DNA of 64,000 nt from Bryobacterales bacterium (GCA_963667885.2 CAXWPK010000006.1:1127445-1191444), one strand, 5' to 3'. Positions 6,071 to 32,413 are shown, counted from the stretch's first letter. Translations and numbers: made by a program. Notes: generated from the sequence alone by a model not told the origin.

Positions 6071-6089
6071 CTGGAGTTTGAAACTCCAG
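6071..6089. terminator. hairpin between the convergent GT4 and asnB genes (possible bidirectional terminator)
   Basis: CTGGAGT-TTGAA-ACTCCAG forms a 7-bp stem with a 5-nt loop. There is no strong T-tract on either side. Confidence 0.3.
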
Positions 6090-6169
6090 CAGAGAGATTT
6101 AGTGGTTGTGTTGCATCGACCGGTTGAGCCGGCATTTATTACTGGTGGCGTGGGTGGATCTGAATCGAT

Positions 6170-9204: not shown

Positions 9205-9470
9205 AGTTCCGCCTGCAGTTCAACGTAGTTATAGATTTCGCCGTTGAAGACCATCACCCACTGCCCATCTTCGGACCACATCGGCTGATGGCCCTTTTCT
9301 GACAGGTCGAGAATGGCGAGCCGGCGGTGGGCCAATGCGACCCCGACAGAGACGTCTGCCCAAACGCCAGAGTCATCCGGTCCCCGGTGCCGGAGCGTGT
9401 TCCCCATGCGCAGTGCAAGTGCTTCCAGGTCTCCGCCGCCACGAGTCAGGAATCCAGCTAGACCGCACAT
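9205..9470 (-). pseudogene. asnB: asparagine synthase family amidotransferase, 5' fragment (88 codons)
   Basis: Starts MCGLAGF (Ntn-glutaminase Cys2), followed by RHRGPDDSG and NGEIYNY. It is interrupted at 9204/9205 by IS copy 1. Confidence 0.9.
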
Positions 9471-9789
9471 CGCGACTCCGATCGTAACAGACGGGTAGCA
9501 GCGCTCCACAGCTCTCGAAACCAAACGCACGAGTCTTCGGCGCACGACCCTTTCGGTTGGGGAATCATCGGGTGGAGTTCGGCGCAATTCCGATCCTTGG
9601 CGGAGTTCAGTGGCGTTGCTTCGTCCTCCTGGTCATCATGCGGCTGTTTCGGTTGGCACAACTTTTCCCTCAATCGCCAAACTTTAAACTACTGGCACGG
9701 CATCGGAATCGGACCTTGGTGCCTGGGGGGAACACCCTCCGTCCACTCTGGCCCAGTTTCCGTCTTGGTGGAATGAGAAAAGCGGAGAG

Positions 9790-10656
9790 TTGGACACTGT
9801 CAAGGCCGTGCGCAGCGCGCTCGTCCATCGCGACCACCGAAGCCTTGTTGGTATACCCGCCGTCAGACAGGCACTACGGCGGATAACGTCCGTTGCGCTG
9901 GCGCAGTCGACCCATCAAGGGTGTGCGATCTATTGGCCATCTTGCGGGTCGCTGACGACCTCTAAATCGGCGATCAAGCCGTGCTTCACATTGGCGGTGA
10001 TTTGCACGTCGTAGGCTGGCGTCACACCGCGGTCGTGCATCCACATGAATCTCGCGGACGGGTCGGTCGACGAGGCTCGCGGCTTACGACGCTTGTCGTG
10101 TTTCTTTGCTGCGCGCAACCGCTCGATCTCTTCGAGTGCTTCAGTTAAGCGTTGCTCTTGGTCGCGAGCCCCGCACCGACGCTGCTCGATTGGTCGCTTG
10201 ATCTTCTTGACGCTCCAACGCTCGCAAGTGGCGGCGCACGAGTTTCAGATACGCTTCGGTCTTGCCGCGTCGTCGGAAGCTCTTATTGTTCACATCGGCA
10301 CGGATCTTGGTGCCATCGACCGCCACGCGTTCGAGAGTGATCAGACCCTTCATCATCAGCATCGCGAGCACTTGTTCGAACAACTCCTGCAATGCTTCTC
10401 CGTGCCCGACGTGGAAGTCCGAGAGCGTGTGATGGTTGATCGGGCGCAGACCGGCTAGCCATTCGAGACCCGGCTCGTACTCCATCTGACGCGCGATCTT
10501 GCGCGCCGATTGCAGGCCTTTGGTGTAGGCGTAGAGCCGGACCGAAACCAGTAGATGCGGCGAGTGCGCACTGCGTCTCACCTGCCCCTCGAGCGTTCGC
10601 AGAACTTGTTGGCTGCGGTTGGTTGGGATGTAGCGAGCGGCAGGGCGATCCGACAT
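9790..10656 (-). pseudogene. IS1182-like (DUF772-type) transposase remnant, frameshifted, with an in-frame stop and 3'-truncated
   Basis: The N-terminal part (10141-10656) looks like the DUF772 transposase domain. A frame change near 10190 continues as ..EQRLTEALEEIERLRAAKKH..STDPSARFMWM..TPAYDVQI. After the stop at 9930 a third frame reads ..CLSDGGYTNKAS.. (DDE ADxGY-like). The 3' boundary is uncertain. Confidence 0.65.
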
Positions 10657-10700
10657 GTCTTATAAGTGCCAAGTAATTGGTGTAATAGAGTACTGGAGGG

Positions 10701-10848
10701 CTATTTGTCCACAGCTTCCTGCTTCACAAACACGAACTCATTGCAGCCCAGATCGCCAGCTTGCGTGGCCATCTCCACAAGGTGAAACCCCTTGTCTCTG
10801 AAAAAGTGAAATATTTCATCCGGCTTCGCAACTTCGAATGGGTACCCT
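10701..10848 (-). pseudogene. class I SAM-dependent methyltransferase, 3' fragment (49 codons) split by an IS
   Basis: Encodes ..YPFEVAKPDEIFHFFRDKGFHLVEMATQAGDLGCNEFVFVKQ. It joins 12167-12880 in frame (..HDVVDWVGG|YPFEVAK..) after removing the IS and one copy of the 4-bp duplication. Confidence 0.8.
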
Positions 10849-12166
10849 TGAACGACCGGTCTGATAGGTAACACTCTAAACCGGACGGATGGGTAACAGT
10901 ATAGGCGGTGGTCAGTGGCCCCCGCGGGGGCCACTGACTGCCTAGCCGAGCGGCCACAGTACGCGGTTGGCGGCGTCGAACAAGGCGAGTTCCACCGGAC
11001 CGAACCAGATCTGCCAAATGGCTTCGTCCACTTCGACTAGCCCGACCAACTCGCGAGCCAACGCTTCACTCAGGAAGTACTTCTCGCCGAGGAACTTGAT
11101 GCGTCCGTCGTGGCGCACTCGTCGGCGCTCCCAGTGCCCCGGGTAATCCAGATCAGCAAGCTCGCTGGGATAGGCGCGTGTTGCTGGTGCATAGAACGCC
11201 GCCGGGGGCCGCTGTCTCAACGCTTCATGCGGACGTTCTTGGTTGTATTCATGACGAAAGAGGTCGAAGCGGCGCTGCTGTCGGCGACGATCGCCAGCCG
11301 GAGGTCTCACTGTCTCGGCTTTGAGCGTGCGGTGTAGCCGCTCGTGGCGACCGTTCTGCTGCGGCTTGCCCGGCTCGATGCGCTCCACCGCAATGCCCAG
11401 CTTCAGCCACCAGACGTTCAACCGGCTCAAGCGTCCGGTGCCGATGGAGGCGAACGGCGAACCGTTGTCTGAGCGTATCCTTCGTGGCAGCCCGCGCTCC
11501 AGAAACAACCGCTCCAAGCCTCGGCGGGCCTCGGCGTAGGATGTGCCCACGTGTGCGGTGCAGTTGAGCAGGAAACGACTATATCCGTCGACGACCGTTA
11601 GCGGATAACACAGCACGCCGTCGCCGGTGTGAAACTGCCCCTTGTAGTCGATCGTCCAGAGGTCGTTGGGCGCTTCGGGTTCGCGCAACGGACTGGGTGC
11701 CGCTTCGGCCAGTCGCCGCATCCGCTTGCGCCCGCGAACGAGTCCGGCTCGCTTCAGCGCGTCGCCGATCGTCGACGCCGCTGGCCAGCTTGTCTGTGAC
11801 TCTTTCGACTCCAGCCAGGCCCTGAGCTTCTTCGGCCCCCAACTCGGATGCTGCCGACGCGCTTCTATCACTCGTCGCTCGACCGACTCGGGTATCCGAC
11901 CGGGCTGACGGTGTGCCGCGTGCGAGCGGTCTTCCAGCTCTGGCCAACCGCCTTGACGGAAGCGTTCTAACCACTTGTATCCGGTCCTGCGGCTGATCCC
12001 GTAGAGTCGACACAGCGCCGCCACGTTCGTCGCCGCCCCCGCTCGCAGCCAGTCTTCAATGAATCTCTTGCGTTCTTCCATCGGATAGGTCTCCTTCCAT
12101 GGCATCTCGCCATGGTGTTACCTATCCGCCCGGTCTAACCTGTTACCCTTCCGCCCGGTCTGTACA
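10849..12166 (-). mobile_element. IS481-like insertion sequence, copy 2 (1318 bp), inserted in the methyltransferase gene
   Basis: The ends match copy 1 and it is flanked by the CCCT/CCCT direct repeat (10845-10848 and 12167-12170). I found two substitutions relative to copy 1, at 10943 and 11630. Confidence 0.9.
10942..12105 (-). CDS. IS481-family transposase, variant allele (premature TAG removes the last 10 aa; one R-to-H change)
   Basis: 387 aa versus 397 aa in the other copies. A G-to-T change at 10943 creates TAG. A C-to-T change at 11630 turns GQFRTGDG into GQFHTGDG. Confidence 0.85.
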   Translation of the reverse strand: MPWKETYPMEERKRFIEDWLRAGAATNVAALCRLYGISRRTGYKWLERFRQGGWPELEDRSHAAHRQPGRIPESVERRVIEARRQHPSWGPKKLRAWLESKESQTSWPAASTIGDALKRAGLVRGRKRMRRLAEAAPSPLREPEAPNDLWTIDYKGQFHTGDGVLCYPLTVVDGYSRFLLNCTAHVGTSYAEARRGLERLFLERGLPRRIRSDNGSPFASIGTGRLSRLNVWWLKLGIAVERIEPGKPQQNGRHERLHRTLKAETVRPPAGDRRRQQRRFDLFRHEYNQERPHEALRQRPPAAFYAPATRAYPSELADLDYPGHWERRRVRHDGRIKFLGEKYFLSEALARELVGLVEVDEAIWQIWFGPVELALFDAANRVLWPLG

Positions 12167-12880
12167 CCCTCCAACCCAATCGACCACGTCGTGCCAAGGA
12201 GACATCCCGCGGTTAAGTTCATGTCGCCATGTTCGCAGCGGCTTCAGCGAGATCAGATCCTTCAATAAGCGTCGCCACCAGAGCACCACAAACCCTGGCC
12301 ACAACACGAGAAATCGAAGCGAAGGCGGCAGCCTGTTATAGGCCACCTTGACCCTGGTCCAACGACGGCTGGGTTTGCCCTGGTCGTTGTATATTGCTAT
12401 AAACAGCAGCCCGCCATCTTCCACCGCGATAGAGACGTTTTCCAACGCAGCCCACATAGCACCCGTGTGGTGAAGAACGCCCCACGAATAAACAACGCCG
12501 AAACGTCCTAATTTCTCGATGTAGGGACGGTCAAGGACGGAACCCTGCTCCACTATCCACTGACTGTCATCACCGAAATATCGAGACCGGAGTTCCCGGG
12601 TGCATGCAAACGACTCCGAATCATAGTCGAAAGAATGCACCTCGGCTCCAAGTCGCCTAGCCGCCAAACTAAAAAGTCCGCTGCCGGACCCAACATCTAA
12701 AAAACTCCGGCCTTGTAGGGATGGGAGGCCTAATTTGTTCGTTAGCGACTCTTCCGCACGGAGAATCGATTTCTCGTCGACTGTCTCAAGAAACCGCTGC
12801 CAATTCTTTCCAAATTCGAACCGATCGCCAGCGGCAATCTCCGCCCGATGGCGAGCGGATGTGGTGTCTTCAGAGTTCAT
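12167..12880 (-). pseudogene. class I SAM-dependent methyltransferase, 5' fragment (238 codons)
   Basis: Starts MNSEDTT at the ATG at 12880 and has SAM motif I FLDVGSGSGLFS. The track ORF extension to 13564 overlaps psd on the opposite strand and is not credible. Confidence 0.8.
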
Positions 12881-13234
12881 AAGAGATTCGAACCGGCTGG
12901 ACCGGCAAAGTGGAAATCCCACCAAGTCTATACCACGACCAGACGCGACTGTGACCCCACCCAGAAGCTGTGAAGCGATAGCTTTTCTAGCTACTGCGAA
13001 GAGACGAACAGCGTTTTGCTGTCGGGACGAGGAATCGGGCAGCGGCGTCGAGATCGTTTCGCTACGGCGCCACACCCCATCGGAGCCGCGACCGTGAGAG
13101 GGGGCTTCGCGGCTCGGTTGGTGGGGACTGTCGGCGTCCGCGATGTAGGTTGGCGAGCCGAAGGGCCACACCCCACGTAGACGGGCCAGGCCCAGCGCCG
13201 CGGGATATAATGGGGGCTCGTTCTCTCTCCCCTT

Positions 13235-21229: not shown

Positions 21230-21706
21230 TTGGTATCCTCCAATGAAATGGAGCTATCGGACATCTACCTCGGACTAGGCCGGGATCGGTTCGACGACGT
21301 ACTGGCAACGGTGTCGATGGGGTCGCTCAAAACCTTCCAGGTCTACGAGACGTTTAAGATTCGCACTCGACTCTCGAAGCTGAACCGAGACCGCTTGAAA
21401 AAGGCTGCGCCCAAGCTATGGAGCCGCATCGAGGAGGGCGATCAGGACCTCGCGAAGGAAATCGCGCAAGGGTCGCTGGTGTCGCACATGGACTTCGTGG
21501 TCGCCGTGCTCGACTTCTTGGAGATCCCCCACGACGGACATGGTTTTTTCGAGAAGGATGCCGAGGCGACCGACAAACTTGCCGATGGCTGGCAGGCGCG
21601 CGTCTTTGGCGAGTTTAAGGAAAGCCACCCGGTGGCGTTGGTATTGCTGTATATCAATCATCTCGATTGGGAGATGAGCGAGCCAACGGAAGTTTTCACC
21701 GGTTGA
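21230..21706 (+). CDS. hypothetical protein
   Basis: 158-aa ORF with protein-like composition. No motif recognised. The start is uncertain. Confidence 0.45.
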   Translation: MVSSNEMELSDIYLGLGRDRFDDVLATVSMGSLKTFQVYETFKIRTRLSKLNRDRLKKAAPKLWSRIEEGDQDLAKEIAQGSLVSHMDFVVAVLDFLEIPHDGHGFFEKDAEATDKLADGWQARVFGEFKESHPVALVLLYINHLDWEMSEPTEVFTG

Positions 21707-21732
21707 TCCGGGTCCAGAGAGTTAGGAGCTGC

Positions 21733-22908
21733 ATGGCTAAGAAGAAAATTGGAATTTTGACGGGTGGCGGAGATGTTCCCGGTCTCAACGCAGTGATTAA
21801 GTCCGTGACCTATGGGGCGACGGGGCTTGGGTATGAGGTCGTCGGCATCCGGCGTGGTTGGAAGGGTTTGGTCGCCCCAACTTGGAGCCAGGGCCGTGAC
21901 GCCAAGCATTTCATTGATTTGGATCGTGACAACACGCGTACGGTTGATCGGACGGGCGGGACCTTTCTGCATACCTCGCGGACGAAGCCTTCGAAGACGA
22001 AGCTTGAGGATGTGCCGCAGCACTTGAAGTCTCGCATCGGCGAGTTCAAGACCCCTGCGGAGGGGCAGGTGGACCTGACGCCGGTGGTACTTGAGAACCT
22101 GGAGCGCCTGGGCGTCGACTATCTGATTCCTATTGGTGGCGACGACACACTGAGCTACGCTGATCGGCTAAACGAAGAAGGTTTCCCGATGGTCTGCGTT
22201 CCGAAAACGATGGACAACGATGTACGGAACACCGAGTACTGCATCGGGTTTTCGACGGCGTTGACGCGAGCCGTTGACAACATCGAACGTCAGCAGACTT
22301 CGATTGGCTCGCACGAGCGCGTTGGAATCTTTCGGATCTTTGGTCGTGATGCGGGTTTCACGGCGCTATACACCGCGTATGTGACCAGTAACCGCTGCTG
22401 CATTCCCGAGTATGAGTTCGACGTGGACAAGCTGATGGACTTGTTGATGGTAGACAAGCGCCACAACCCATCGGGTTACTCGATCGTTATTCTATCGGAA
22501 GGCGCTACTTGGCACGGGCGTGACGTCGCTGAATACGGCGAGCCCGACGCGTTTGGGCACCGTAAGAAGGTCAGTATTGCCGAAGACTTCAGTGCACGAA
22601 TCCAGGCAAAATACGGGGTGGAGACGGTCGTTAGTGACCTAACTTACGACCTGCGTGGGGGCAAGCCCGACTCGCTTGATCGTATGGTGGCGACCACGTT
22701 TGCCACGATGGCGGTCGAGTGCATCGCGGACGGCGGCAGAGGTAAGATGACGGCGATCCAGAACGGTCGGTTCACCATGGCAGACCTGCCGGATGCCAGC
22801 CGTGGGCCCCGTAACATCGATTTGGAAACGATGTACAACACGGACCGCTACCGACCGAACTATGAACGCAAGGCGGGTCTGCCGGTCTTTTTGACCGAAC
22901 TGGACTAG
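21733..22908 (+). CDS. pfp: 6-phosphofructokinase, probably pyrophosphate-dependent (PPi-PFK)
   Basis: Begins MAKKKIGILTGGGDVPGLNAVI, with AGGAG 5 nt upstream of the ATG at 21733. Contains IGGDDTLSYA (Asp where ATP-PFKs have GGDGS) and PKTMDNDV (Lys where ATP-PFKs have PGTIDND). Confidence 0.85.
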   Translation: MAKKKIGILTGGGDVPGLNAVIKSVTYGATGLGYEVVGIRRGWKGLVAPTWSQGRDAKHFIDLDRDNTRTVDRTGGTFLHTSRTKPSKTKLEDVPQHLKSRIGEFKTPAEGQVDLTPVVLENLERLGVDYLIPIGGDDTLSYADRLNEEGFPMVCVPKTMDNDVRNTEYCIGFSTALTRAVDNIERQQTSIGSHERVGIFRIFGRDAGFTALYTAYVTSNRCCIPEYEFDVDKLMDLLMVDKRHNPSGYSIVILSEGATWHGRDVAEYGEPDAFGHRKKVSIAEDFSARIQAKYGVETVVSDLTYDLRGGKPDSLDRMVATTFATMAVECIADGGRGKMTAIQNGRFTMADLPDASRGPRNIDLETMYNTDRYRPNYERKAGLPVFLTELD

Positions 22909-22926
22909 CGCTCTCGAAGACTTAAG

Positions 22927-22960
22927 AAGGGTCGGACGTCGTGATCAACGTCCGGCCCTT
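22927..22960. terminator. bidirectional terminator hairpin between pfp and the response-regulator gene
   Basis: AAGGGTCGGACG-(10 nt)-CGTCCGGCCCTT forms a 12-bp stem with one G-U pair. It lies in the 81-nt convergent gap. Confidence 0.6.
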
Positions 22961-22989
22961 CGTTGTGACCTGTTCGCCGGTGGTTGCGG

Positions 22990-23493
22990 CTACATGAAGG
23001 CCTTGATGATCTGGGCCTGGATCTCTTGCAGGTTCTGCTGCACGTTCTGCACTTCCTGGATCTTGTTCTCTACTTCCTGGATCTTGTTCTCTAACTTCTC
23101 CATGAGGAATCGTCGTTCCAGGCCGTTCTCGATGGTGAGTTTGAGATCGTCGTTATTCCAAGGCTTTTCGACGTACTGGTAGAGCCCAACTTCGTTGATG
23201 GCCTTGATAGCATTCTCTTTGTCGGCGTATCCAGTCAATAGAATACGGGTGGCAAAGGGATGAATCTTCTTCATCTCTAAGAGGAACTCGATGCCGGTCA
23301 TACCTGGCATAAGGTAGTCCGAGATCACCAAATCCAGTGGCTTATCTTTGAGCGTGATGATTGCGTCTTCGGGAGAAGTAAACGTCTCGACTTCGTAGTC
23401 GGTCTCCAGCAGCAAGAACGAGCGAAGACTCGTCAGCACCATTTCTTCGTCATCAACAATCGCAATCACAGTTGTCTCTCCCGACTCTCTCAT
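22990..23493 (-). CDS. response regulator: receiver domain plus C-terminal coiled coil, no DNA-binding output
   Basis: Receiver motifs are intact: IAIVDDEE, DLVISDYLMPGMTG, LLTGYAD and EKPW. The C-terminus has heptad repeats ENKIQEVENKIQEVQNVQQNLQEIQ. Confidence 0.85.
   Translation of the reverse strand: MRESGETTVIAIVDDEEMVLTSLRSFLLLETDYEVETFTSPEDAIITLKDKPLDLVISDYLMPGMTGIEFLLEMKKIHPFATRILLTGYADKENAIKAINEVGLYQYVEKPWNNDDLKLTIENGLERRFLMEKLENKIQEVENKIQEVQNVQQNLQEIQAQIIKAFM
23051..23092 (-). repeat. perfect 21-bp tandem duplication inside the response-regulator coiled coil
   Basis: ACTTCCTGGATCTTGTTCTCT occurs twice (23051-23071 and 23072-23092), encoding ENKIQEV twice, i.e. exactly one heptad. 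Confidence 0.9.
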
Positions 23494-25298
23494 TCACTCT
23501 TTCCTTCTGACCCTTCATCATCGCCGTCAGGAGGGGTGATCGGCAGCCAGAGCGTGAAGGTAGAGCCCTTACCTACATCGCTCTCCACATCGATTCGGCC
23601 TCCATGGTCTTCGGCAATCTTGAAACAGATCGAAAGTCCCAGCCCTGTTCCGATGCCGACCCCTTTGGTAGTGAAGCCTGGGTCAAAGATCGCCGCCAAG
23701 TTTTCTTTCGGGATTCCCGCCCCGCTGTCTGTAATCGAGACTCCTACCTCGTCGCCGTCCAAGAATGTCCGGAGACGAATCTCGCCCTTGTCTGGTATTG
23801 CCTGAGTGGCGTTGACCAGTAGGTTCATAAAGACTTGATTGATCTGATTGGGGTGGCAGAGGACCGGAGGAATATCTTCGTAATCTTTCACTACGTTGAT
23901 GCGGTTCTTCAGCTCGTGACGAATCAGTGTCAGAGTAGAATCCAATCCTTCTCGAAGATCGGCGCTCTGGAACTCGGCTTCGTCGAGGCGGGCGAAGTTC
24001 CGCAGGCTGCCTACGATGGAGACAATGCGCGCGCAGGCCAACTTGTTGATCCGGGCGATATCTTCGATCAAATCGATGACCTGTTGCAGGCGTTTGTTTT
24101 CACGAATGGACTCCGGTGTCGATGGATCGCACAACGTCTTTCGCACGGTGTCTAAGCAGCGTGCCAGAGTGTCGGCGCTGGAGTTGATTGTGCCGATTGG
24201 CGTGTTGAGCTCGTGAGCGATCCCGGCGACAAGCCCTCCTAGCGCGGCCATCTTCTCTTGCTGCACGAGGCGTGCTTGAGAATCCCGGAGGGCACCAGTG
24301 CGTGCTTCGACCTCTCGCTCCAGCTCCTCGGCGTGACCTTTGAGGTGCGCGGCAAGTTGCTCACGCTGCGTGACGTCTTGCCCGACCACCTGGAGTAGTC
24401 GGTTGGAGCTGTAGACGACGAGCGTTGCGCTGATGTCGTAATAGCGCGTCTCGCCTGAATTGGCGAGAGGCATCGACGTCGCTAGCAGCGTTGTTTCGCC
24501 GTTGCACATGCTGACACAGCCGGAAGCGTCAGGGAAGCGGGCAAGCGGAAGAACTTGTTCGAGAGTTCGGCCCAGTAGTCGCCCCCGCGGCAAGCCGGTC
24601 ATTTCAGAGGCTCGATTGTTGACTTCGAGGATGCTTTGATCACTGACAGTTGCTAGCAGAATGGCCTCGGCAGACTCTTCCATCAAGGCGCGGTACTTGG
24701 TTTCAGAATCCTCCGCTTCGCTGGACCGTCGCTGCAACTCCTCATAGAGTCGAGCGTTCTCGACGATCTGTGATGATTGCGAAGCGATGATAGAGAGCAG
24801 TCGCTGATCCTCAGCGGTGAAGCCGTCTGGGTCGTGCTTGTTGAAGACGTTTAACAGGCCAACCATTTGGCCCTTGGCTCTTAGCGGAACGCTGAGGAGC
24901 GACTTGACGGGAAAGTCGGCGGAAGTGATCGACCGGAATCTTTCATCGGCTGCCAAATCGTTGACGACAAGAGGTCGCTGATTCTTCAGCATCCAGCCGG
25001 TAAGCTGTTGCCGCAACGGAAACGGAATGGCGTCGGAGCCGGAATAGACTTTCCGTGCCATGGTGCGAAACGGGTCACTGACCTCGCCGTGGTCGAGCAA
25101 CATGACGGACGCCTGCTCGACGTCGAGGTGCTTGGCGCTCTCTTGAACGATCAGCTCGATAACCTCGTTGAGATCGATTGTTGAGCCGATCGCGGCGCCG
25201 ATCGTGTTGAGGATGGTGAGCTCGTCGACCGAACGGCGCAAGCGGCGATTTTCAGCTTGCAACTCAGCTGAAGTCTGAGTCTGGGGTTCTGCGGACAT
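23490..25298 (-). CDS. cytoplasmic sensor histidine kinase (coiled coil-GAF-PAS-HisKA-HATPase_c)
   Basis: All boxes are intact: H box AGIAHELNTPIG, N box NLLVNATQAI, G1 ITDSGAGIP, G2 GTGLGLSIC. It has no TM helices. Its stop overlaps the response-regulator start (ATGA). Confidence 0.85.
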   Translation of the reverse strand: MSAEPQTQTSAELQAENRRLRRSVDELTILNTIGAAIGSTIDLNEVIELIVQESAKHLDVEQASVMLLDHGEVSDPFRTMARKVYSGSDAIPFPLRQQLTGWMLKNQRPLVVNDLAADERFRSITSADFPVKSLLSVPLRAKGQMVGLLNVFNKHDPDGFTAEDQRLLSIIASQSSQIVENARLYEELQRRSSEAEDSETKYRALMEESAEAILLATVSDQSILEVNNRASEMTGLPRGRLLGRTLEQVLPLARFPDASGCVSMCNGETTLLATSMPLANSGETRYYDISATLVVYSSNRLLQVVGQDVTQREQLAAHLKGHAEELEREVEARTGALRDSQARLVQQEKMAALGGLVAGIAHELNTPIGTINSSADTLARCLDTVRKTLCDPSTPESIRENKRLQQVIDLIEDIARINKLACARIVSIVGSLRNFARLDEAEFQSADLREGLDSTLTLIRHELKNRINVVKDYEDIPPVLCHPNQINQVFMNLLVNATQAIPDKGEIRLRTFLDGDEVGVSITDSGAGIPKENLAAIFDPGFTTKGVGIGTGLGLSICFKIAEDHGGRIDVESDVGKGSTFTLWLPITPPDGDDEGSEGKSE

Positions 25299-25325
25299 GG
25301 GCGGCGAGTCAGTCCCAGTATAATT

Positions 25326-25787
25326 CTAGCTAGGGGGCGTGGCTGAATCGGTAGGACTCTCGATTCCTGCCGAGAGGATCGAGCGAACTCGCTTGAACAA
25401 GGCCTGAAACAGCTCGCGGGTTACGGCGCTGTGGTCGGCTAAGAGTTCAAAGAACTCCTCGCGATCGATTCGCAGCAGATCGGTATCTTGCGCCGCAACG
25501 GCGGTGACGACACTTGGTTCACGGTCGAACAACGCCCAGTTTCCCAGGGTCTCGTTGGCGCCGATCGAATAAATGACAAGACCGCCTCGGCGCATCTCAA
25601 TCTCCCCATCGAGAACGGTGTAGAGGGCGGGAATTGGGTTGCCTTCTTCGACCACGGTCTCACCTTTCTTCAGATCGATCTGTTGAGCGATTGATGCCAG
25701 AAGCGCCAGCATTTCGGTTTCGAGGTCGCTAAAGAGTTCGACTTTCTGGAGTCGAATGGCGCGATCGAGTGTCGTGAGTTGCTCCAT
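25326..25787 (-). CDS. stand-alone cyclic-nucleotide-binding domain protein
   Basis: 153 aa with a CAP/PKA-like beta-roll: LFSDLETEMLALLA..KKGETVVEEGNP..LYTVLDGEIEM..GANETLGNWALFDREPSVVTAVA. It has no HTH or other output domain. Confidence 0.75.
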   Translation of the reverse strand: MEQLTTLDRAIRLQKVELFSDLETEMLALLASIAQQIDLKKGETVVEEGNPIPALYTVLDGEIEMRRGGLVIYSIGANETLGNWALFDREPSVVTAVAAQDTDLLRIDREEFFELLADHSAVTRELFQALFKRVRSILSAGIESPTDSATPPS

Positions 25788-25799
25788 GACGCCACTGCT

Positions 25800-28565
25800 T
25801 CAGAAACGGGCGCTCGCTGCGAGGGCTGTCTCTCGTAGGAGAGGATCGGCGTGTCGCGTGAGCTCGGTGATCTTCGCGTGGCAGGCCGTTTGTCTTGATT
25901 CCGCGGCGGCGTGGCAGGCACACACTTGAAGCCAAACGTCTGATGTGTCTAGCAGTCGTCGCAAGACGCTAGAGTAAGGCACTGGGTCAAGTTGGAACAA
26001 CCGTTTGCCTGCTTCAAGGATCCCCCGGTTGGTCTGCTCTTCGACGGCGGGCAGCAGCACGGCACGAATATCGCTGCCGATAAGGCGGCTGTCAAGGAAC
26101 TCAAGGGCATTGGCTCGTAGGTCGCGCCGTCCGCTTTGGATTCGGTGGTGAGCATCTCGCATCTCACGCTGGGGGTATATCAGGCCGAGTAGGACAAAGG
26201 CTTCATTGAGCCAGCGATCTTGTCTCTCTCGAAGTGCCAGGGCTAGGAACTTGGCCGCAGGTGCGTGCGCCTCGTCTCGCATGCCTGCCGAGAGAGTGAC
26301 TGTCTCATAGAAACGTCTTAATACGGACTGCAACAGAAGATTGACGACCTCGTTGTTGAAATCGTGATCTGGAGTCTTGTCTCGTATCCGACCGAGGGCT
26401 CGGAGCACGTCAGGTCGGGCGATTTCACGGCTTCTCCTGAGATGAGCGAGGAGCGATTGCGTTGCTAGTCGTCCACCGATGCTGCCGAGGACTCGAGCAG
26501 ACTGGCGTTGGAGACGGGGTGCCGCGCTATCGTCTCGGAGGGCTGCGCTCAATGCAGCAATCGCTTGTTCGCCGTAAGCGGTGACCGCTTGACGAGTATC
26601 AGTGCCGTAGCGTCGTTCTGAGAGAAGGAGGATCAGCTTCGGCAGGTCCTCTGTCTGCCGTAGCGCCCCGGTACTGCGAATAGCTGCACGAACGACCTCT
26701 GGTTCGGGAGAGTCCAGCAGAGCGGACAGGATGTCGGAGCGATGCTGTTTGATCGGTGCCAATCCTAGTAGTTGCGCGGCCTGGACTTGTTCCGCAGGGC
26801 CACCCTCGCTGAAAGCGACGACGACGTTTTGGAATAAAGAATCAGCCTGGGACGGGTAGTCGGACCTTTTCATCAGACGAGCCGCAGCCATGGCCGCTAG
26901 CGGTTGGTCCGGCTGCTGAAGGAGCGATTCCTCCGTTTCGCGAGCGATGACGGAGCCTTGCAGGTCGAGGTAATCGAAGGCTCGCTGGCGGGAGTCGAAA
27001 TCAGTCTCTAGACGTAGGAACGCCGCGACTTCGCGCTCGCAGCCCTCTGCTTGGAGCGATGCGATCGTGGTCATGGCCTTGCGCCGCACGGCTTCTGACT
27101 CATGTACGAGGAGAGAAGCAAGTTGGCTTTGTGCCGCTTTGGCATTGCTGAATTGGGCTAGGCCGACAGCGACTTCGACATCCTGAGCGTCGGAGCTGGC
27201 CAGGCCGGTTTCCAGCTCGTTGGAGGGGCCTGAGGCCGCTAGGCGCTGAAGAAGTTGCTCGGCGCTGATGTCGCGTCGCTCGATGGTCGTGCGCAGGGTT
27301 TGGATGTACTCGCCGCGCAGGGTCCAGAGAACCAGGAGCCAAGCCAACAGGAAGATGAGGCTGGCCCAGCTGATGTGCTGGATGGTAGCGTCGCCAAGGT
27401 AGAGCAGGGCGATGAGGATGAGACTGGCCAAACCGTCCGCGCCTCGGCTGACGACGATGTCCATGAAGCTCTTGACGCGATTGCGCAGGTCGCTGGCGAC
27501 CGGCACCCACAGCAGCTCAGAGGAGGCGCGGTCGATGGAGTGCCGGAAGCCCTGATCGGCACCGCGAGCCCAGATGGCAGCAAAGATCGACGCCGAGAAC
27601 AAGAGACCCACCACGCCCGAGAGCATCGCCAACGGAAGGACAAAGAGTGCAAAGCTAGGGCCGATCCAACGCAGGATGCGACTCGACAGAGTGGCGTGGA
27701 ACAGGAAGGAGATGACCGAGACGTAGCCGTAGAAATAGCCACCAAACGAAGCCAGGCCATCGCGATCCGCTTCGAAGTAGGCCTGGGCCACCGCCTTGAA
27801 TTGGTACTTGACGAGTGTTCCGACGACGGTCGAAGCGATGACCGCTAGCGCGATGAGCAGAAGATAGCGATTGATGCTGACGAGGCGGGCGCTATCGAGG
27901 ATCGGAGCTTTGGCCTTTTCAGGGCTTGGACTGGTGAGGTCCTGTCGTTTGCCCTTTGTGATTGCTCGAGCGATCCAGCTCCCGCCGAATAGAAGGCCAG
28001 CGGCGACTGGCAGAACGCTGGCCGCGCCAATTCTCGGCCCGAAAAAGCCGGTGAAGCTGCCTCCGACGGCAGCACCGAGAATACCGCCAGCCCCAATCAC
28101 AGTGAACAACCGCTTTGCCTGGCGAGTGGTGAAGGTGGCGGCAGAGAGCGACCAGACCTGACTGGGGATCAAGATGGCGAAGACGCCGACCCAAAGGTAG
28201 AGCAGAATTGGTGCCCAGGTGAAGTTCGCCCATAGCAGCAGCCACAGCACGAGGATGCTGGCTGCGAGGACGGTCTGTGTCTTGGAGACGAGTGAGCCGA
28301 GAGCGAGGCGACCGCTCCAACTCAAGTAGTAGTTGATGAGCACGCCGACCAAGAGGGTGACGACTAGGTCGACGTAGGGGAGTAGTCTCGCGTCGAATTC
28401 GCTAAGGAAGACGGCGTCGCTCACTGCCTTGAGGCAGATGACGGCAGCCATGCCCATCAGCAGGAACAAAGCCAGTAGGAGGGTTGGCCGCACCTCTCGC
28501 CGCTCTACGCGAAGTGCGCGTAGCAAGCGGGACGAAAGTGGGAGAACGGCGGAATCGGCCGACAT
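25800..28565 (-). CDS. fusion protein: N-terminal ATP/ADP-translocase-like (TLC/Npt family) membrane domain plus C-terminal HEAT-repeat domain
   Basis: 921 aa. The first approximately 430 aa carry about 11-12 hydrophobic helices, and the N-terminus resembles TLC-family starts (..RALRVERREVRPTLLLALFLLMGMAAVICLKAVSDAVFL..). The remainder is about 480 aa of Leu/Ala/Arg-rich helical repeats (..SPEPEVVRAAIRSTGALRQTEDLPKLILLL..). The family call is from memory of the architecture, not from a search. Confidence 0.6.
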   Translation of the reverse strand: MSADSAVLPLSSRLLRALRVERREVRPTLLLALFLLMGMAAVICLKAVSDAVFLSEFDARLLPYVDLVVTLLVGVLINYYLSWSGRLALGSLVSKTQTVLAASILVLWLLLWANFTWAPILLYLWVGVFAILIPSQVWSLSAATFTTRQAKRLFTVIGAGGILGAAVGGSFTGFFGPRIGAASVLPVAAGLLFGGSWIARAITKGKRQDLTSPSPEKAKAPILDSARLVSINRYLLLIALAVIASTVVGTLVKYQFKAVAQAYFEADRDGLASFGGYFYGYVSVISFLFHATLSSRILRWIGPSFALFVLPLAMLSGVVGLLFSASIFAAIWARGADQGFRHSIDRASSELLWVPVASDLRNRVKSFMDIVVSRGADGLASLILIALLYLGDATIQHISWASLIFLLAWLLVLWTLRGEYIQTLRTTIERRDISAEQLLQRLAASGPSNELETGLASSDAQDVEVAVGLAQFSNAKAAQSQLASLLVHESEAVRRKAMTTIASLQAEGCEREVAAFLRLETDFDSRQRAFDYLDLQGSVIARETEESLLQQPDQPLAAMAAARLMKRSDYPSQADSLFQNVVVAFSEGGPAEQVQAAQLLGLAPIKQHRSDILSALLDSPEPEVVRAAIRSTGALRQTEDLPKLILLLSERRYGTDTRQAVTAYGEQAIAALSAALRDDSAAPRLQRQSARVLGSIGGRLATQSLLAHLRRSREIARPDVLRALGRIRDKTPDHDFNNEVVNLLLQSVLRRFYETVTLSAGMRDEAHAPAAKFLALALRERQDRWLNEAFVLLGLIYPQREMRDAHHRIQSGRRDLRANALEFLDSRLIGSDIRAVLLPAVEEQTNRGILEAGKRLFQLDPVPYSSVLRRLLDTSDVWLQVCACHAAAESRQTACHAKITELTRHADPLLRETALAASARF

Positions 28566-28621
28566 AACAGCCCGGCTAAAGGGCCTCCCGATTATACGAG
28601 GCCCGTCGCGGGGCGTTTTGG

Positions 28622-29122
28622 TTAGACGTTCCGCGCGGCCATGTCACCGATGATGGGCAGTCGGAACTCTTCGCCGTTGAAGGCCTTGATGACCGCGATT
28701 AGCCATGCAGCGACCATGGCGAGAAAAACTAGCGGAGTGGTCAGAAACGTCACGAACCCGAGGACGGGAACGAATCCGATCACGATATTAGCCGTGTTCA
28801 ACACGATGATGGCCCCAGCCAGTAGTAGGCACTGCAGGCTGTGGAAACGGACGAATCGATTCTTGTTATAGGGCTCGATTAGCAGGAAGACAATGGCCGG
28901 GACGATAGTGAGATAGGCCACCGCGCCGAGCACGTTATCGTTGGCTGCTGGAGTCGCTGCGGCCGGAGCGGCTTGAGGTGCACTCGAGCCCGCCTCTGGA
29001 GCGGCTGGGGCCTCCTCGGCAGGGCCAGCGGAAGTGGCCGGAGCCTCTGCGACGGGTTGACCGCATTTGGAACAGAATTTGACGCCAGAAACTTCGGTGC
29101 CGCAAGAACTGCAGAATGGCAT
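28622..29122 (-). CDS. zinc-ribbon plus DUF4870-like small membrane protein
   Basis: Begins MPFCSSCGTEVSGVKFCSKCGQPV (double CxxC), followed by a Pro/Ala linker and 3 TM helices. The ATG at 29122 is preferred over the track start at 29242. Confidence 0.6.
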   Translation of the reverse strand: MPFCSSCGTEVSGVKFCSKCGQPVAEAPATSAGPAEEAPAAPEAGSSAPQAAPAAATPAANDNVLGAVAYLTIVPAIVFLLIEPYNKNRFVRFHSLQCLLLAGAIIVLNTANIVIGFVPVLGFVTFLTTPLVFLAMVAAWLIAVIKAFNGEEFRLPIIGDMAARNV

Positions 29123-29279
29123 GATTATGACGCGCCCCTTTCGCGCGCCCCAAGTATACATGCGGGGAATTGGGGTTTTACACAGGCAGGTGTGACGGAT
29201 TGGCACAATGGCGTGTCGAGAAGGCGCGGTTGAGGGTGCCAAAGACCGCTAAATACCTGTGTTAGCATCACTTTAGGGC

Positions 29280-29295
29280 TGGCACGCAAGTTGCT
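29280..29295 (+). promoter_or_regulatory. candidate sigma-54 (-24/-12) promoter
   Basis: cTGGCACGcaagTTGCT matches the consensus YTGGCACG-N4-TTGCW at every fixed position. It is in the correct orientation 19 nt upstream of the ATG at 29314. The implied leader is very short, which is a caveat. Confidence 0.5.
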
Positions 29296-29313
29296 AACAA
29301 GCCCTCTGGAAGC

Positions 29314-29844
29314 ATGCGTTTCGTTCGCTACATACTGGTTTTGGCTGCTTGCACCTTGTTGAGCGCGGCGACGCTTGAGCGCCTGACCGTCGAAGAGATG
29401 GCTCAGCAGTCGACGTCGGTTGTTCGTGGGCAGGTCGGCGAGGCTCGATCGGCCCGTTTTGGTGCTTTGGTCTACACGCTGCACAGATTCGAAGTGCAGG
29501 AGCAGTGGACAGGCTCCCTTATAGCTGGACTGGAAGTCGCTATTCCTGGTGGAACTTACGAAGGTCTGACGTATCGATTTGGCGGCACCCCTGAGCTGAA
29601 ACCAGGAGACGAGTACGTTCTGTTCCTTTGGACCGGGCCGAGCGGTAGAACCCAGATCGTTGGCCTGAGCCAGGGCGTCTTCCAGGTCGTACGGCAAGCC
29701 GAAGGCACCGCGGTGATCAGGAATCCGGTTGGCGACACGGTGTTCGCTGGCGATAGCGATGAAAAAGCCGAGCGAACCGTGCGAATGCCGCTGGAGCGAC
29801 TGGCCGCGAGAGTTCACGCGGCGGTAGCGGAGATCGACGACTGA
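29314..29844 (+). CDS. secreted hypothetical protein, translationally coupled to the downstream metalloprotease
   Basis: Has a signal peptide MRFVRYILVLAACTLLSAA. The 176-aa product is predicted beta-rich. Its stop overlaps the next ATG (TGATG). Confidence 0.55.
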   Translation: MRFVRYILVLAACTLLSAATLERLTVEEMAQQSTSVVRGQVGEARSARFGALVYTLHRFEVQEQWTGSLIAGLEVAIPGGTYEGLTYRFGGTPELKPGDEYVLFLWTGPSGRTQIVGLSQGVFQVVRQAEGTAVIRNPVGDTVFAGDSDEKAERTVRMPLERLAARVHAAVAEIDD

Positions 29845-32390
29845 TGAGGCGGTCTCGCATCATCTTTCTCGCCGCTGCGGCGGCGATGCTCAGCATCGCG
29901 ACATCGGCGTCCGGCTACTACCACTTTCTACATTTTCAGCAGACGGAAGATGGCTTGCGGGCGATACCGGAGCGGTTCGACCGGGACGCGCTGGTCGATG
30001 ACACGGTTTACTTTTACGTGTCGGCGGAGCAGCGACCTCGGATGCAAGAGAACGATAGTTTCAACGGGCTGGTCAGCCAGGTTAGGCAGGCGCTAGCTAC
30101 GTGGGATGCCGTGCCGACCTCGCACCTACGAGTGGGGTTTGGTGGAGTGGTTGATGGGCCGCTGCAGGGCTTGGCACCGGCAGCGGAGATCGTTTTCGCT
30201 GAACTGCCGCCTGGTGTCTTGGGCATGGGTGGCCCGACCCTGAGAGGAGAGCCGGGAGAGGAGTTTGTTCCGATCCAGCGGTCGCAGGTGATCGTTCCCG
30301 ACAATTTGGCGGTTCAGGGTGGGACGACTTTTTCTGAAGGTTTTTACAACACGCTGGTCCATGAGATTGGTCATGCGCTCGGGTTGCAGCATTCGCTCGC
30401 AGGTTCGGCGATGAGCATGGAAGCGACGCGCTCGACTACACGGGCCCGCCCTCTGGGCCCAGACGACGTGGCGGGGCTCTCGGCACTCTATCCGACGGAT
30501 GAGTTTCAGGCCCTCACCGGCGCGATCGAGGGAACAGTTCTCTATGGCGATGGGACGCCGGTAGTGATGGCCTCGGTCGCAGCGGTGAATCTTGGAGGCC
30601 GCGTGGTGACCGCCCTGACGGCTCCAGACGGGGTTTACCGCATTGAGGGTCTGTTGCCAGGGGACTATACGCTCTATGCGCAGCCAGTGCCTCGGACGAC
30701 GAGCGCGGGTCTGGGGCACGGGAACAATCGTTTGCCGGTTGATGAAGAAGGCAGCGAGATCCCGGCGTCGGGTGCGTTCCGCACGGTGTTCTTGGGGGAT
30801 GCGGATCGGCCCGAGGCCGCGCGTTTCGTCCCGGTCGTGGCGGCGTCGGTTGTGGCCGACGCCGATTTTCGGGTCGAGCGCCGAGAGAACCCTGCGTTGC
30901 TTTCGGTGACGACCTATAGTTTTCCTGGTTATGGCGCGCCGGGCGTTCATCCGGCGTTTCTCAACATTTCGGATTCGGCGGGCTTGCTCGTCGCTACCGG
31001 GCCGGACTTGGTGCCGAAAGTTGGTGAGATGCAGTTGACTGCGTTATTCCGTGACGTCACGATCCGGACTCCACACCTCTACGAACCTGCTCCGAGCTTT
31101 GTCCAGTTGGACGTGGAGCCAGCGCCCTTCGCTGGACTGGGACCACTGCACTTGATGTTCCGTCTGCCGGACGACATCCACATCTTACCGGGTGCGGCAC
31201 GGCTTACCGACCGGGCGACGCCGATCATCTACTGGTTGACACCGGACTTTAGCGTGGGAACCTCTGCATGGCGGGTCGCTGGGCAGCAGTTTGGACCGAG
31301 TTCACAGGTCTACTTCGATGGACTTCCCGGTCGTGTGCTCGCGTTTGACTCCATCACGGGCGAACTGGTCGTCGAGCCACCGGTCGGCCCGGCAGGACAT
31401 CAGGCAGTGGTTACTGTTTACAACCCCGACGGTCAGAGCTCTGCGTTTGTATTGCCGGACGGTAACGTGATATTTACTTACCCGGAGGGTCCGGCCGCGA
31501 GTGTCTTTTCAGACAGTGAGGCGTCACCGAATACGGACCAGGTGGTTGGGATCTCGGGACTATTTACTCAATTCGTTGCTGGCGAGGCTGTTGTCGGCTT
31601 CGGGTCGAGCGACATCGTGACTCGAAAGGTCCGGGTGCTGGATGAATTCAACCTGCGAGCGGTGGTTAGCGTTGGTGCGGACGCCGTGCCGGGTCGTTAT
31701 GACATCAGTGTCTCGAATGGTCTTGAGACGATTGTTTTGAGCGAGGCTTTTCAGGTCCGAAGTGGCGGAGACGACGAACGCAAGCCTGCCCTGACCTACG
31801 GCGGCCTGATCAACGCGGCGACGAATACGCACGGCGTTGCGCCTGGTATATTGGCGTCTCTGTACGGCCTACGGCTGGCTCTCCCGGGATTGGAATCTGA
31901 GGTGCGTGTGACGATAGCTGGGTTACAAGCACGGTTGGCGAGCGTCTCGGAGCATCAGATCAACCTGCAGATCCCCGACGATGTCGAACCTGGGCTGGTG
32001 GAGTTACGGGTGTTCAACGGCGAGGTGGAGAGCGAAATCATGCTCGTGCTGATTGACCATGCTGCGCCAGGTTTGTTTGGAGCCCTGGGCTCGACCGGAG
32101 AAGTAGCAGGCCCGGCGACTCCCTTGCAGGCGGGTGCCGAGTTTACCCTAATCGCGACCGGATTTGGAGTGGCGGCTGGCGACCCGCTGGACGAGGACGT
32201 GCTGGTCAACGGTTTTCGCCTGAAGCCCACTATGGTGACCTCGCCAGCCCCGGGCGTTCAAGAAGTGCGGCTGACGCTACCGGAGGCGTTTGGTGCGGCG
32301 GCAAGTGTCCGGCTGGAATTGCTTGTTGCTGGGCGATTGAGCAATGCGCTCGATGTTCCCGTTACCCCGGGTCCGACTCCGCTGCAGTAG
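29844..32390 (+). CDS. secreted metzincin (matrixin-like) zinc protease with a carboxypeptidase-regulatory-like domain, TIG-like domains and a Solibacter-type C-terminal domain
   Basis: Has a signal peptide and HEIGHALGLQHS (HExxHxxGxxH) followed by an AMSM Met-turn candidate. Contains GTVLYGDGTPV..DGVYRIEGLLPGDYTLYA. The C-terminal region (..YGGLINAATNTHGVAPGILASLYG..HQINLQIPDDVEPG..) resembles the TIGR03437-type domain common in Solibacter. Confidence 0.75.
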   Translation: MRRSRIIFLAAAAAMLSIATSASGYYHFLHFQQTEDGLRAIPERFDRDALVDDTVYFYVSAEQRPRMQENDSFNGLVSQVRQALATWDAVPTSHLRVGFGGVVDGPLQGLAPAAEIVFAELPPGVLGMGGPTLRGEPGEEFVPIQRSQVIVPDNLAVQGGTTFSEGFYNTLVHEIGHALGLQHSLAGSAMSMEATRSTTRARPLGPDDVAGLSALYPTDEFQALTGAIEGTVLYGDGTPVVMASVAAVNLGGRVVTALTAPDGVYRIEGLLPGDYTLYAQPVPRTTSAGLGHGNNRLPVDEEGSEIPASGAFRTVFLGDADRPEAARFVPVVAASVVADADFRVERRENPALLSVTTYSFPGYGAPGVHPAFLNISDSAGLLVATGPDLVPKVGEMQLTALFRDVTIRTPHLYEPAPSFVQLDVEPAPFAGLGPLHLMFRLPDDIHILPGAARLTDRATPIIYWLTPDFSVGTSAWRVAGQQFGPSSQVYFDGLPGRVLAFDSITGELVVEPPVGPAGHQAVVTVYNPDGQSSAFVLPDGNVIFTYPEGPAASVFSDSEASPNTDQVVGISGLFTQFVAGEAVVGFGSSDIVTRKVRVLDEFNLRAVVSVGADAVPGRYDISVSNGLETIVLSEAFQVRSGGDDERKPALTYGGLINAATNTHGVAPGILASLYGLRLALPGLESEVRVTIAGLQARLASVSEHQINLQIPDDVEPGLVELRVFNGEVESEIMLVLIDHAAPGLFGALGSTGEVAGPATPLQAGAEFTLIATGFGVAAGDPLDEDVLVNGFRLKPTMVTSPAPGVQEVRLTLPEAFGAAASVRLELLVAGRLSNALDVPVTPGPTPLQ

Positions 32391-32413
32391 CTATAATTTG
32401 GGTGGTCATTTGA

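Follow-up and report, generated by a model that had tools for sequence, protein, structure and literature searches.

A Bryobacterales gene cluster joining an NTT-HEAT protein and a cyclic-nucleotide-binding-domain homologue to a recurrently associated two-component pair

The NTT-HEAT proteins, in which an N-terminal NTT domain is joined to C-terminal HEAT repeats (PF13646), form a monophyletic group that is widespread in free-living bacteria, also includes uncharacterised members from Chlamydia trachomatis, cyanobacteria and oomycetes, and has no assigned function (Major, Embley & Williams 2017, Genome Biol Evol, PMC5381601). According to the same study, genes for cyclic-nucleotide-binding domains (cNBDs) lie a few nucleotides downstream of NTT-HEAT genes, from which an operon was inferred, three-domain NTT-HEAT-cNBD fusions have undergone repeated fusion and fission, and a control of ATP uptake by cAMP was suggested; two-component genes are not mentioned alongside NTT-HEAT (PMC5381601). 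Our literature search found no characterised member and no functional study, in agreement with the initial annotation of the locus described here, which had been made from the sequence alone and listed such proteins as lacking an assigned function. We analysed a 64,000-nucleotide stretch of DNA from a Bryobacterales bacterium (GCA_963667885.2, CAXWPK010000006.1:1127445-1191444; hereafter the window), in which an NTT-HEAT gene and a cNBD gene are followed by genes for a histidine kinase and a response regulator. The two former products are without the canonical nucleotide-binding and cyclic-nucleotide-binding residues, respectively, and the kinase-regulator pair recurs beside them in several gene orders. 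The four genes are:

25800-28565, minus strand: NTT-HEAT gene, 921 aa
25326-25787, minus strand: stand-alone cNBD gene, 153 aa
23490-25298, minus strand: histidine kinase gene, 602 aa
22990-23493, minus strand: response regulator gene, 167 aa, its start overlapping the kinase stop (ATGA)

Together with a gene upstream that is treated further below, they make up five minus-strand open reading frames (ORFs), whose coordinates, like the gaps of 12 nt between NTT-HEAT and cNBD (25788-25799) and of 27 nt between cNBD and kinase (25299-25325) and the 4-nt ATGA overlap between kinase and regulator, are exactly as initially annotated. The four genes are tightly packed, and this packing, together with a TATAAT hexamer upstream and a hairpin downstream, would be compatible with a single operon; a simple terminator scan called no terminator-like site at the cluster junctions. 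The locus resembles those described by Major et al. 2017 (PMC5381601) in its NTT and HEAT fusion and in the cNBD (PF00027), which is encoded just downstream or fused. It differs in that this type is joined by a kinase and a regulator in many genomes and in that the window clade is without the ATP-binding and cAMP-binding residues. The separate cNBD gene, to which the initial annotation had drawn attention, is therefore not new. As far as could be found, the link of a kinase and regulator to NTT-HEAT has not been described earlier, and the loss of the canonical nucleotide and cyclic nucleoside monophosphate (cNMP) contacts likewise appears undescribed.

The family is large: a search at E<=1e-30 returned 10,940 representatives of 50%-identity clusters, the best 150 of which are all near full length, and a genome scan with a single peptide pattern gave 497 matches among 185,579 species genomes. 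Transferred annotation usually labels its members 'ATP:ADP antiporter' or 'Npt1/Npt2 nucleotide transporter'. The 921-aa protein, which has 136 close homologues, was placed by similarity ranking and by a neighbour-joining tree within clade A (Bryobacterales/Terriglobia, 39-66% identity, 32 loci). It agrees with the NTT-HEAT clade both in its domains and in the adjacency of a cNBD gene, here 12 nt downstream, and is composed of two parts:

27270-28565, minus strand: 12-transmembrane (TM) NTT/TLC-fold domain, residues 1-432
25803-27269, minus strand: HEAT solenoid, residues 433-921

The TLC-HEAT architecture proposed at first was borne out. Pfam TLC (PF03219) scores 33.2 bits against a gathering cut-off of 21, covering only residues 116-327, and HEAT_2 is matched at 3e-11. 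An AlphaFold2 model built on 104 homologues (predicted local distance difference test, pLDDT, 87; predicted TM-score, pTM, 0.64) has 12 TM helices in residues 22-429, mostly with pLDDT >85, followed by about 26 solenoid helices in residues 435-921. A profile built from the N-terminal 450 residues of 22 relatives and searched against the PDB matched Chlamydia pneumoniae NTT1 (9j3n, 1.2e-27) and Arabidopsis AtNTT1 (9j3j, 7.4e-27) and nothing else, and NTT structures occupy Foldseek ranks 1-3 (TM-score 0.70-0.74), with NorA and SPNS2 ranking lower. Since the family profile matches solved NTTs and NTTs head the Foldseek list, the protein belongs to the NTT lineage and is not a generic MFS protein, a possibility that the initial annotation had raised. 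The C-terminal half matches HEAT/ARM solenoids, with AlphaRep and HEAT structures reaching 2e-49, and by MFS/NTT topology this solenoid should be cytoplasmic. A conserved stretch, 'NA.EFLDSRL', occupies residues 819-828.

With the canonical NTT/TLC translocators (AtNTT1 and C. pneumoniae NTT1; 9j3j, 9j3l, 9j3m and 9j3n), the 921-aa protein shares the 12-TM fold and the motifs W..AN, AKR, E..Y.P and K..ID; it differs from them by its additional 490-aa HEAT solenoid and at four key positions. In AtNTT1, the K155 mutant loses ADP binding, the K527 mutant loses ATP binding and E245K loses exchange (PMC3306366). Adding 84 to the 9j3j chain numbering gives the AtNTT1 precursor numbering and puts K155, E245, E385 and K527 on K, E, E and K; the Chlamydia NTT has the same four residues, which are replaced by D66, G127, K253 and G378 in the 921-aa protein. 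Across 104 members of the family, the K155 column holds D in 72 and Y in 17, the others being hydrophobic, the E245 column G in 95, the E385 column K in 65 and D in 30, and the K527 column G in 77 and A in 27; K never occurs at the K155 or K527 position. The mapping of K155 to D66 falls in a weakly scoring stretch of the alignment, and the other three positions lie in well-aligned blocks. The NCBIfam model for NTP/NDP exchange transporters (TIGR00769) gives 27.7 bits against a cut-off of 387.2. We consider that the 921-aa protein is probably not a canonical ATP/ADP exchanger and that ATP/ADP bound in canonical fashion is probably not its substrate, so that the initial label 'ATP/ADP-translocase-like' stands for the fold and not for the binding site. 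A near-invariant polar set in the family (K46, Q136, W138, R148, R152, D337, R341, D345, E350, K365, D369, R374, D377) speaks for a binding or coupling site that is real but of another kind.

A comparable loss is seen in the neighbouring cNBD protein. Its 153 aa match Pfam cNMP_binding (PF00027) at 3.6e-15 (56.1 bits against a cut-off of 27.5) as well as PKA, PKG and CRP structures, the best at 2e-12. The cassette was aligned to PKA regulatory subunits and CRP:

25497-25550, minus strand: phosphate-binding cassette of the cNBD protein, the canonical Glu and Arg replaced by N83 and S92

In the HMMER alignments, it reads G-N-W-A-L...P-S-V-V-T, compared with the canonical G-E-L-A-L...P-R-A-A-T of the PKA regulatory subunits. 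With G82-N83 and P91-S92, it departs from the pattern G-E...R-[ST]-A: as the aligned positions hold N and S, neither the ribose-contacting Glu nor the Arg for the cyclic phosphate is present. The motif 'GNWA(L/F)FD.QPS' is kept in all 31 of 31 orthologues. The protein of the window clade is thus probably not a cAMP/cGMP receptor, and resembles a cNBD homology domain that binds a different ligand or no ligand at all. In this respect, it is similar to the non-cNMP-binding homology domains (CNBHDs) of KCNH channels, which share the cNBD fold and a cassette without the Arg and Glu, and hERG CNBHD chains are among its PDB matches; it differs from them in being a stand-alone bacterial protein. Some other family members (L109, L115 and L078; loci are referred to by L numbers) keep the cassette Arg, and the fused member L083 has a fully canonical cassette, G-E...P-R-S-A-S, so that cyclic-nucleotide binding may be ancestral or limited to some branches.

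These two sets of residues bear on the idea of a carrier for the exchange of ATP/ADP or other nucleotides, with uptake adjusted by cAMP or cGMP bound to the cNBD, which was put forward by Major et al. 2017 (PMC5381601) and, as a cNMP-gated carrier, in the initial annotation. The NTT lineage and fold, the retained NTT motifs (AKR, E350...P355 and K365...D369), the presence of a cNBD fold, and the canonical cassette of the L083 fusion with the Arg of some other members would all agree with such an importer. Set against this are the absence of a lysine at the K155 and K527 positions in 104/104 members, the G and K/D at the E245 and E385 positions, the large shortfall from the TIGR00769 cut-off and, in the window clade, a cassette without Glu and Arg. 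Cyclic-nucleotide gating is accordingly doubtful here, and a cyclic-nucleotide-gated nucleotide importer seems to us a very unlikely description of the cluster. No cyclase gene was found in the cluster by ORF calls and Pfam. An anti-phage effector of the Pycsar/CBASS type was also considered and set aside: PADLOC gave only weak matches (~1e-8) in the cNBD region of the 153-aa protein and none for the other four products.

The two remaining genes encode what appears to be a complete two-component pair, with the following features:

24759-25175, minus strand: kinase GAF domain (Pfam)
24360-24698, minus strand: kinase PAS domain (Pfam)
24045-24242, minus strand: kinase HisKA domain with H362, 28.5 bits against 26.9
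23535-23852, minus strand: kinase HATPase_c domain (Pfam)
23131-23466, minus strand: regulator receiver domain with D59 (Response_reg, 2.8e-23)
22993-23130, minus strand: regulator coiled coil and conserved C-terminal tail ...QIIKAFM, about 45 aa
23044-23098, minus strand: 21-nt tandem repeat of 2.6 copies (TRF), adding one heptad (ENKIQEV) to the regulator coiled coil

The 602-aa kinase is predicted to be soluble. Pfam, NCBIfam and motif reading uphold the GAF-PAS kinase with intact H, N, G1 and G2 boxes that had been described from the sequence (H362; N, 492-500; G1, 524-529; F, 538-545; G2, 548-556). The receiver residues of the regulator are likewise intact (D14, D15, D59, T87 and K110); Pfam finds no domain besides Response_reg, and neither Pfam nor NCBIfam gives a recognisable output domain, which also agrees with the first description. 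Its best NCBIfam match is NF053512 (1.1e-43, residues 12-157), a REC-HD(-GYP) receiver, and among PDB entries it matches 2rjn best, a receiver from a REC-HD protein. The protein thus resembles RpfG-type REC-HD-GYP regulators in its receiver and linker helix, and full-length REC-HD-GYP proteins adjoin NTT-HEAT in 11 loci of clade B; it differs from them in having no HD-GYP and in ending after a coiled coil of about 45 aa and the conserved tail. The clade-B REC-HD-GYP proteins were rejected as orthologues of the window regulator, as their 30% identity is ordinary for receivers.

The duplicated heptad makes the window regulator 167 aa long instead of 160 and is specific to the window: neither L085 nor L098, two near-identical metagenome contigs, has it, nor does any other orthologue. 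The 160-aa form is 75-95% identical over >120 clusters and is conserved far beyond its neighbours (P0121-P0240). Its coiled coil and tail, ...QI(I/V)K(A/T)F(M/V/I/L), are kept across all arrangements described below, from Bryobacterales to a Poribacteria metagenome-assembled genome (MAG). The ATGA overlap and the constant adjacency of the two genes, including at loci without NTT-HEAT, lead us to infer that kinase and regulator are a cognate pair. Several copies of the regulator carry the JGI labels 'RpfG family c-di-GMP phosphodiesterase' or 'NtrC family DNA-binding regulator' and have a receiver domain only; judged by this domain content, the RpfG-type names of the 160-aa regulators are over-annotations.

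The neighbourhoods of NTT-HEAT genes were scored with the window proteins in the best 80 of the 497 relatives, using one genome per species. The cNBD gene directly follows NTT-HEAT in 31 of the 32 clade-A loci, adjoins it also in the distant members L081, L082 and L078, and is fused to it in P0109-P0115, in most clade-B loci, in L083 and in L133. A kinase and a regulator follow the cNBD gene in 19 of the 31 genome loci of clade A (Bryobacterales type) and in 16 metagenome loci. In the neighbour-joining tree of clade A, the kinase/regulator link occurs in almost every sub-branch and is missing only in the nested L010/L012, L003 and L008/L014, which points to an ancestral link with repeated unlinking. 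A kinase-based metagenome scan found nine loci with full-length kinase orthologues that have NTT-HEAT and cNBD genes upstream. NTT-HEAT and cNBD also accompany all seven metagenome loci with short kinases, which have PAS only or no detectable sensor. The overlap between cNBD and kinase genes is 8 nt in these short-kinase variants and 4 nt in L054.

We regard recurrences in other gene orders as stronger evidence for the link than synteny within the clade. In L108, L109 and L115, a REC-PAS-GAF-PAS kinase of 1119 aa is followed by NTT-HEAT, cNBD and a regulator of 176 aa. L133 encodes an NTT-HEAT-cNBD fusion, then the regulator, with a 4-nt overlap, and then a kinase of <=329 aa with HisKA and HATPase_c only. 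In L054, the Poribacteria MAG, a propeller-PAS kinase precedes NTT-HEAT, which is followed by cNBD, a 316-aa kinase in which no sensor domain was detected, a receiver, and a receiver plus coiled coil. The NTT-HEAT proteins of these rearranged clusters are only 27-35% identical to each other. In addition, cNBD-HisKA-HATPase fusion kinases exist in L161.

Several observations weigh against an obligatory, or even a functional, link between the two modules. In 12 of the 31 clade-A genome loci, no kinase or regulator lies within 10 kb, and in five metagenome loci the kinase-regulator pair occurs with no NTT-HEAT or cNBD gene in the 7.6-10 kb upstream. Separation within a genome, checked in two genomes via the regulator protein, was found in both: in OZ244172.1, NTT-HEAT and cNBD lie at 6.68 Mb and an orthologous GAF-PAS kinase and regulator at 4.29 Mb, 2.4 Mb apart, the regulator being 79% identical to that of the window, and in the second genome the kinase and regulator are likewise apart from NTT-HEAT and cNBD. 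The distant members L081, L082 and L083 keep the cNBD and have no two-component genes nearby. Synteny in clade A extends to the unrelated DUF4870, M10-type peptidase and PFK genes; part of the conservation is therefore shared ancestry, and conservation within the clade alone proves little. Moreover, the window kinase has its own GAF and PAS domains, so that an external sensor is unnecessary.

Much of this would be expected if the modules were adjacent but independent, the kinase and regulator being a conserved general two-component system of the acidobacterial lineage with the regulator's target elsewhere. The regulator is far more conserved than the NTT-HEAT protein (75-95% over the >120 clusters, compared with 44-66%), and the pair is also found beside other genes (a 2-hydroxyacid dehydrogenase and NUDIX gene in L164/L165) or divergent from its upstream neighbour (L094 and L099, which have the pair without NTT-HEAT). 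Against independence, the same tail-marked regulator subfamily and a kinase stand beside NTT-HEAT/cNBD in at least three gene orders, in lineages whose NTT-HEAT proteins have diverged to the low identities given above, and it is very unlikely that, out of thousands of genes, these would have come together by chance again and again. We therefore consider independence unlikely; if the coupling is not true, the cluster would be an ordinary juxtaposition of two conserved modules. Judged from the gene neighbourhoods, NTT-HEAT plus cNBD is the universal core, and the kinase with the receiver/coiled-coil regulator is a recurrent, non-obligatory add-on. The gene linkage to a kinase and regulator noted in the initial annotation is thus conserved in part of the genomes and in rearranged form, but is not obligatory.

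Some further features of these loci deserve mention in their own right. In about 44 of the 48 loci L033-L080 (Vicinamibacterales and other Acidobacteriota), an NTT-HEAT gene and an NTT-HEAT-cNBD paralogue form a divergent head-to-head pair around positions 6000-12800 of each locus, the unfused protein having ~920-950 aa and the fusion ~1230-1290 aa, which suggests that the two carriers may work as a pair. A convergent REC-HD-GYP regulator lies downstream in 11 of these loci, and in about 8 the fusion gene has an OmpR-type regulator and a HAMP kinase as neighbours. In L161 (7570-12445), two adjacent kinases have an N-terminal cNMP-binding domain fused directly to HisKA-HATPase_c; immediately upstream lies the gene for a fusion of a receiver with a pyridine-nucleotide-disulphide oxidoreductase. 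The unlinked kinase-regulator pair of L164 (7218-9927) and L165 (7221-10967) follows the 2-hydroxyacid dehydrogenase gene and is itself followed by the NUDIX hydrolase gene, with nothing between them in L164 and one BNR-repeat gene between them in L165; this setting may be a nucleotide-related hint. The NTT-HEAT frame is split into 2-3 ORFs in the long-read Bryobacterales MAGs L017, L019, L022, L024-L027, L029 and L032, through sequencing frameshifts or as pseudogenes, and 7 of these 9 are among the loci without an adjacent kinase and regulator.

Based on the computed gene packing, folds, intact catalytic residues, lost canonical binding residues and recurrent association, we infer the physical contacts, signalling direction, regulator target and substrate of the following hypothetical scheme. 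We tentatively favour a carrier-anchored phosphorelay acting via protein-protein contacts. Its cross-phylum core would consist of a 12-TM NTT-fold carrier, a cytoplasmic HEAT solenoid as docking platform and a small cNBD-fold subunit bound on it; the natural fusions, together with the constant adjacency of the genes, imply binding of the cNBD-like protein to NTT-HEAT. In the lineage of the window, a soluble kinase and a receiver/coiled-coil regulator would have been recruited to the HEAT platform, where (i) the state of the carrier and any ligand of the cNBD-like subunit would be relayed via cNBD/HEAT to the kinase, to which the window kinase would add its own GAF and PAS inputs; (ii) the kinase would phosphorylate the regulator at D59; (iii) the regulator, having no DNA-binding or enzymatic domain, would work by protein contact through its conserved coiled coil and C-terminal tail; the HEAT platform itself would be the most economical target, with feedback on the carrier. 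The cNBD side is proposed as the input to the kinase in view of the cNBD/kinase gene overlaps, the cNBD-kinase fusions and the kinases without a sensor domain; the L133 and L054 kinases (329 and 316 aa) would need an external sensor, as none was detected in them.

Control might instead run only from the kinase to the carrier. In a purely feed-forward arrangement, the GAF-PAS kinase would sense a cytoplasmic cue alone, and the phosphorylated regulator would dock on HEAT/cNBD and open or close the carrier, with no signal from carrier to kinase. This would suit a kinase that bears its own sensor domains and a pair that, occurring also as a stand-alone two-gene unit, can sense alone, and the cluster offers an obvious protein-interaction target for a regulator without an output domain. 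It fits less well with the sensorless kinases that adjoin cNBD or NTT-HEAT-cNBD in L133, L054 and L105, and with the gene overlaps and existing cNBD-kinase fusions, which point to an input from the cNBD side. We regard a feed-forward-only cluster as possible, although somewhat doubtful. As far as the sequence goes, the NTT-HEAT protein may be a transceptor or a regulated carrier, two readings that differ in the direction of signalling. Going further along the line of the carrier-anchored phosphorelay, NTT-HEAT might be the membrane sensor or platform of an unrecognised class of carrier-anchored two-component systems and not a nutrient importer, the cNBD-homology subunit coupling carrier conformation to the soluble kinase and the regulator feeding back on the platform or on another protein; in this extended form, the idea is speculative and we would not call it probable.

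There are precedents for both parts of the carrier-anchored scheme. In UhpC/UhpB, DctA/DcuS and BceAB/BceS, a transporter or transporter-like protein, encoded or acting together with a two-component system, reports its transport state to a histidine kinase; the kinases there are membrane proteins and meet the transporter inside the membrane, and the regulators are DNA-binding proteins. The window system would differ from such co-sensors in its soluble kinase, in the cytoplasmic HEAT/cNBD platform as the likely interface and in a regulator without a DNA-binding domain. In AmtB-GlnK and SbtA-SbtB, a small ligand-binding protein encoded downstream docks on the carrier and gates it. This layout resembles that of NTT-HEAT followed by cNBD; it differs in that the cNBD fold is not the PII fold and in that docking of the cNBD is proposed from natural fusions alone. 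DctA/DcuS and UhpC are mentioned as transporter co-sensors in PMC5703999.

These results bear on the annotation of the family in three ways: the ADP/ATP-binding residues of canonical NTTs are absent throughout the sampled NTT-HEAT family; the cNBD partner in the window clade is without the cyclic-nucleotide contacts; and a specific kinase and an output-less regulator have been repeatedly recruited beside NTT-HEAT/cNBD. If the coupling is true, a variant with a soluble kinase and a HEAT platform would be added to the known transporter co-sensor systems, and if the sensor/platform reading is true, it would give a first functional handle on a family of >10,000 sequence clusters.

The upstream gene and two structured spacers delimit the cluster:

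28622-29122, minus strand: Zn-ribbon/DUF4870 membrane protein gene, 166 aa counted from ATG
28581-28604, minus strand: inverted repeat whose loop contains TATAAT, 25 nt upstream of where NTT-HEAT starts
22926-22961, minus strand: strong hairpin (15 pairs); the 81-nt spacer that contains it separates the regulator gene from the convergent PFK gene

The name given to the upstream product agrees with Pfam, in which DUF4870 scores 26.2 bits against a cut-off of 25 and the Zn-ribbon match falls slightly under its cut-off. The DUF4870 gene is a syntenic upstream neighbour in at least 14 clade-A loci and is absent from the rearranged clusters. It is separated from NTT-HEAT by the TATAAT, probably the -10 box of a promoter belonging to the cluster itself, so that the DUF4870 gene is probably a separate transcription unit.

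The inverted repeat reported for this 56-nt spacer is present in the sequence, with 7-bp stems (28604-28598 and 28587-28581), a 10-nt loop and the TATAAT at 28596-28591, and the whole spacer folds at -26.8 kcal/mol (z -2.65). In the equivalent spacers, examined in L001-L031, L087, L089, L100 and L138, 24 of 30 loci, with the window among them, have a perfect TATAAT upstream of NTT-HEAT, 9-88 nt from its start, and the flanks at these loci are otherwise unconserved; the whole 64-kb window has only 4 TATAAT hexamers. The hexamer at 28596-28591 is therefore probably a -10 box. A sigma-70 scan gave no promoter at the cluster start, as there is no recognisable -35 box, and its sole site lies inside a coding region. 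The TATAAT is often found in the loop of an inverted repeat, the stem sequences of which differ from locus to locus. A conserved hairpin around it was considered; the signal is strong compared with other TATAAT sites (p = 2e-9) and weak with composition-matched shuffles (mean z -1.0 over 18 non-redundant loci; -0.8 for the window's own hairpin), and we have downgraded the hairpin and retained the TATAAT, since little signal is left once composition is controlled.

At the other end, the hairpin at 22926-22961 folds at -29.5 kcal/mol (z -2.85) and is probably a shared terminator closing the cluster; it has no T-run and was for this reason missed by the simple terminator scan. Structured RNA in the cluster spacers was rejected, as Rfam gave no match in 22000-30000 and the 27-nt cNBD-kinase spacer does not fold.

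The PFK-family phosphofructokinase gene that is convergent with the regulator gene lies at 21667-22908 on the plus strand. On the opposite side, also on the plus strand, 29314-32390 encodes a 176-aa protein without a Pfam match and a protein of 848 aa that has both a CarboxypepD_reg domain and the zinc-protease motif of M10 (matrixin); all three flank genes are syntenic in the closest relatives. Two of the three other TATAATs in the window are on the plus strand, at 32392-32397 and 13206-13211, and the one at 32392 lies 16 nt before the TTG start of a 491-aa ORF at 32414, as would be expected if the leader were very short or missing.

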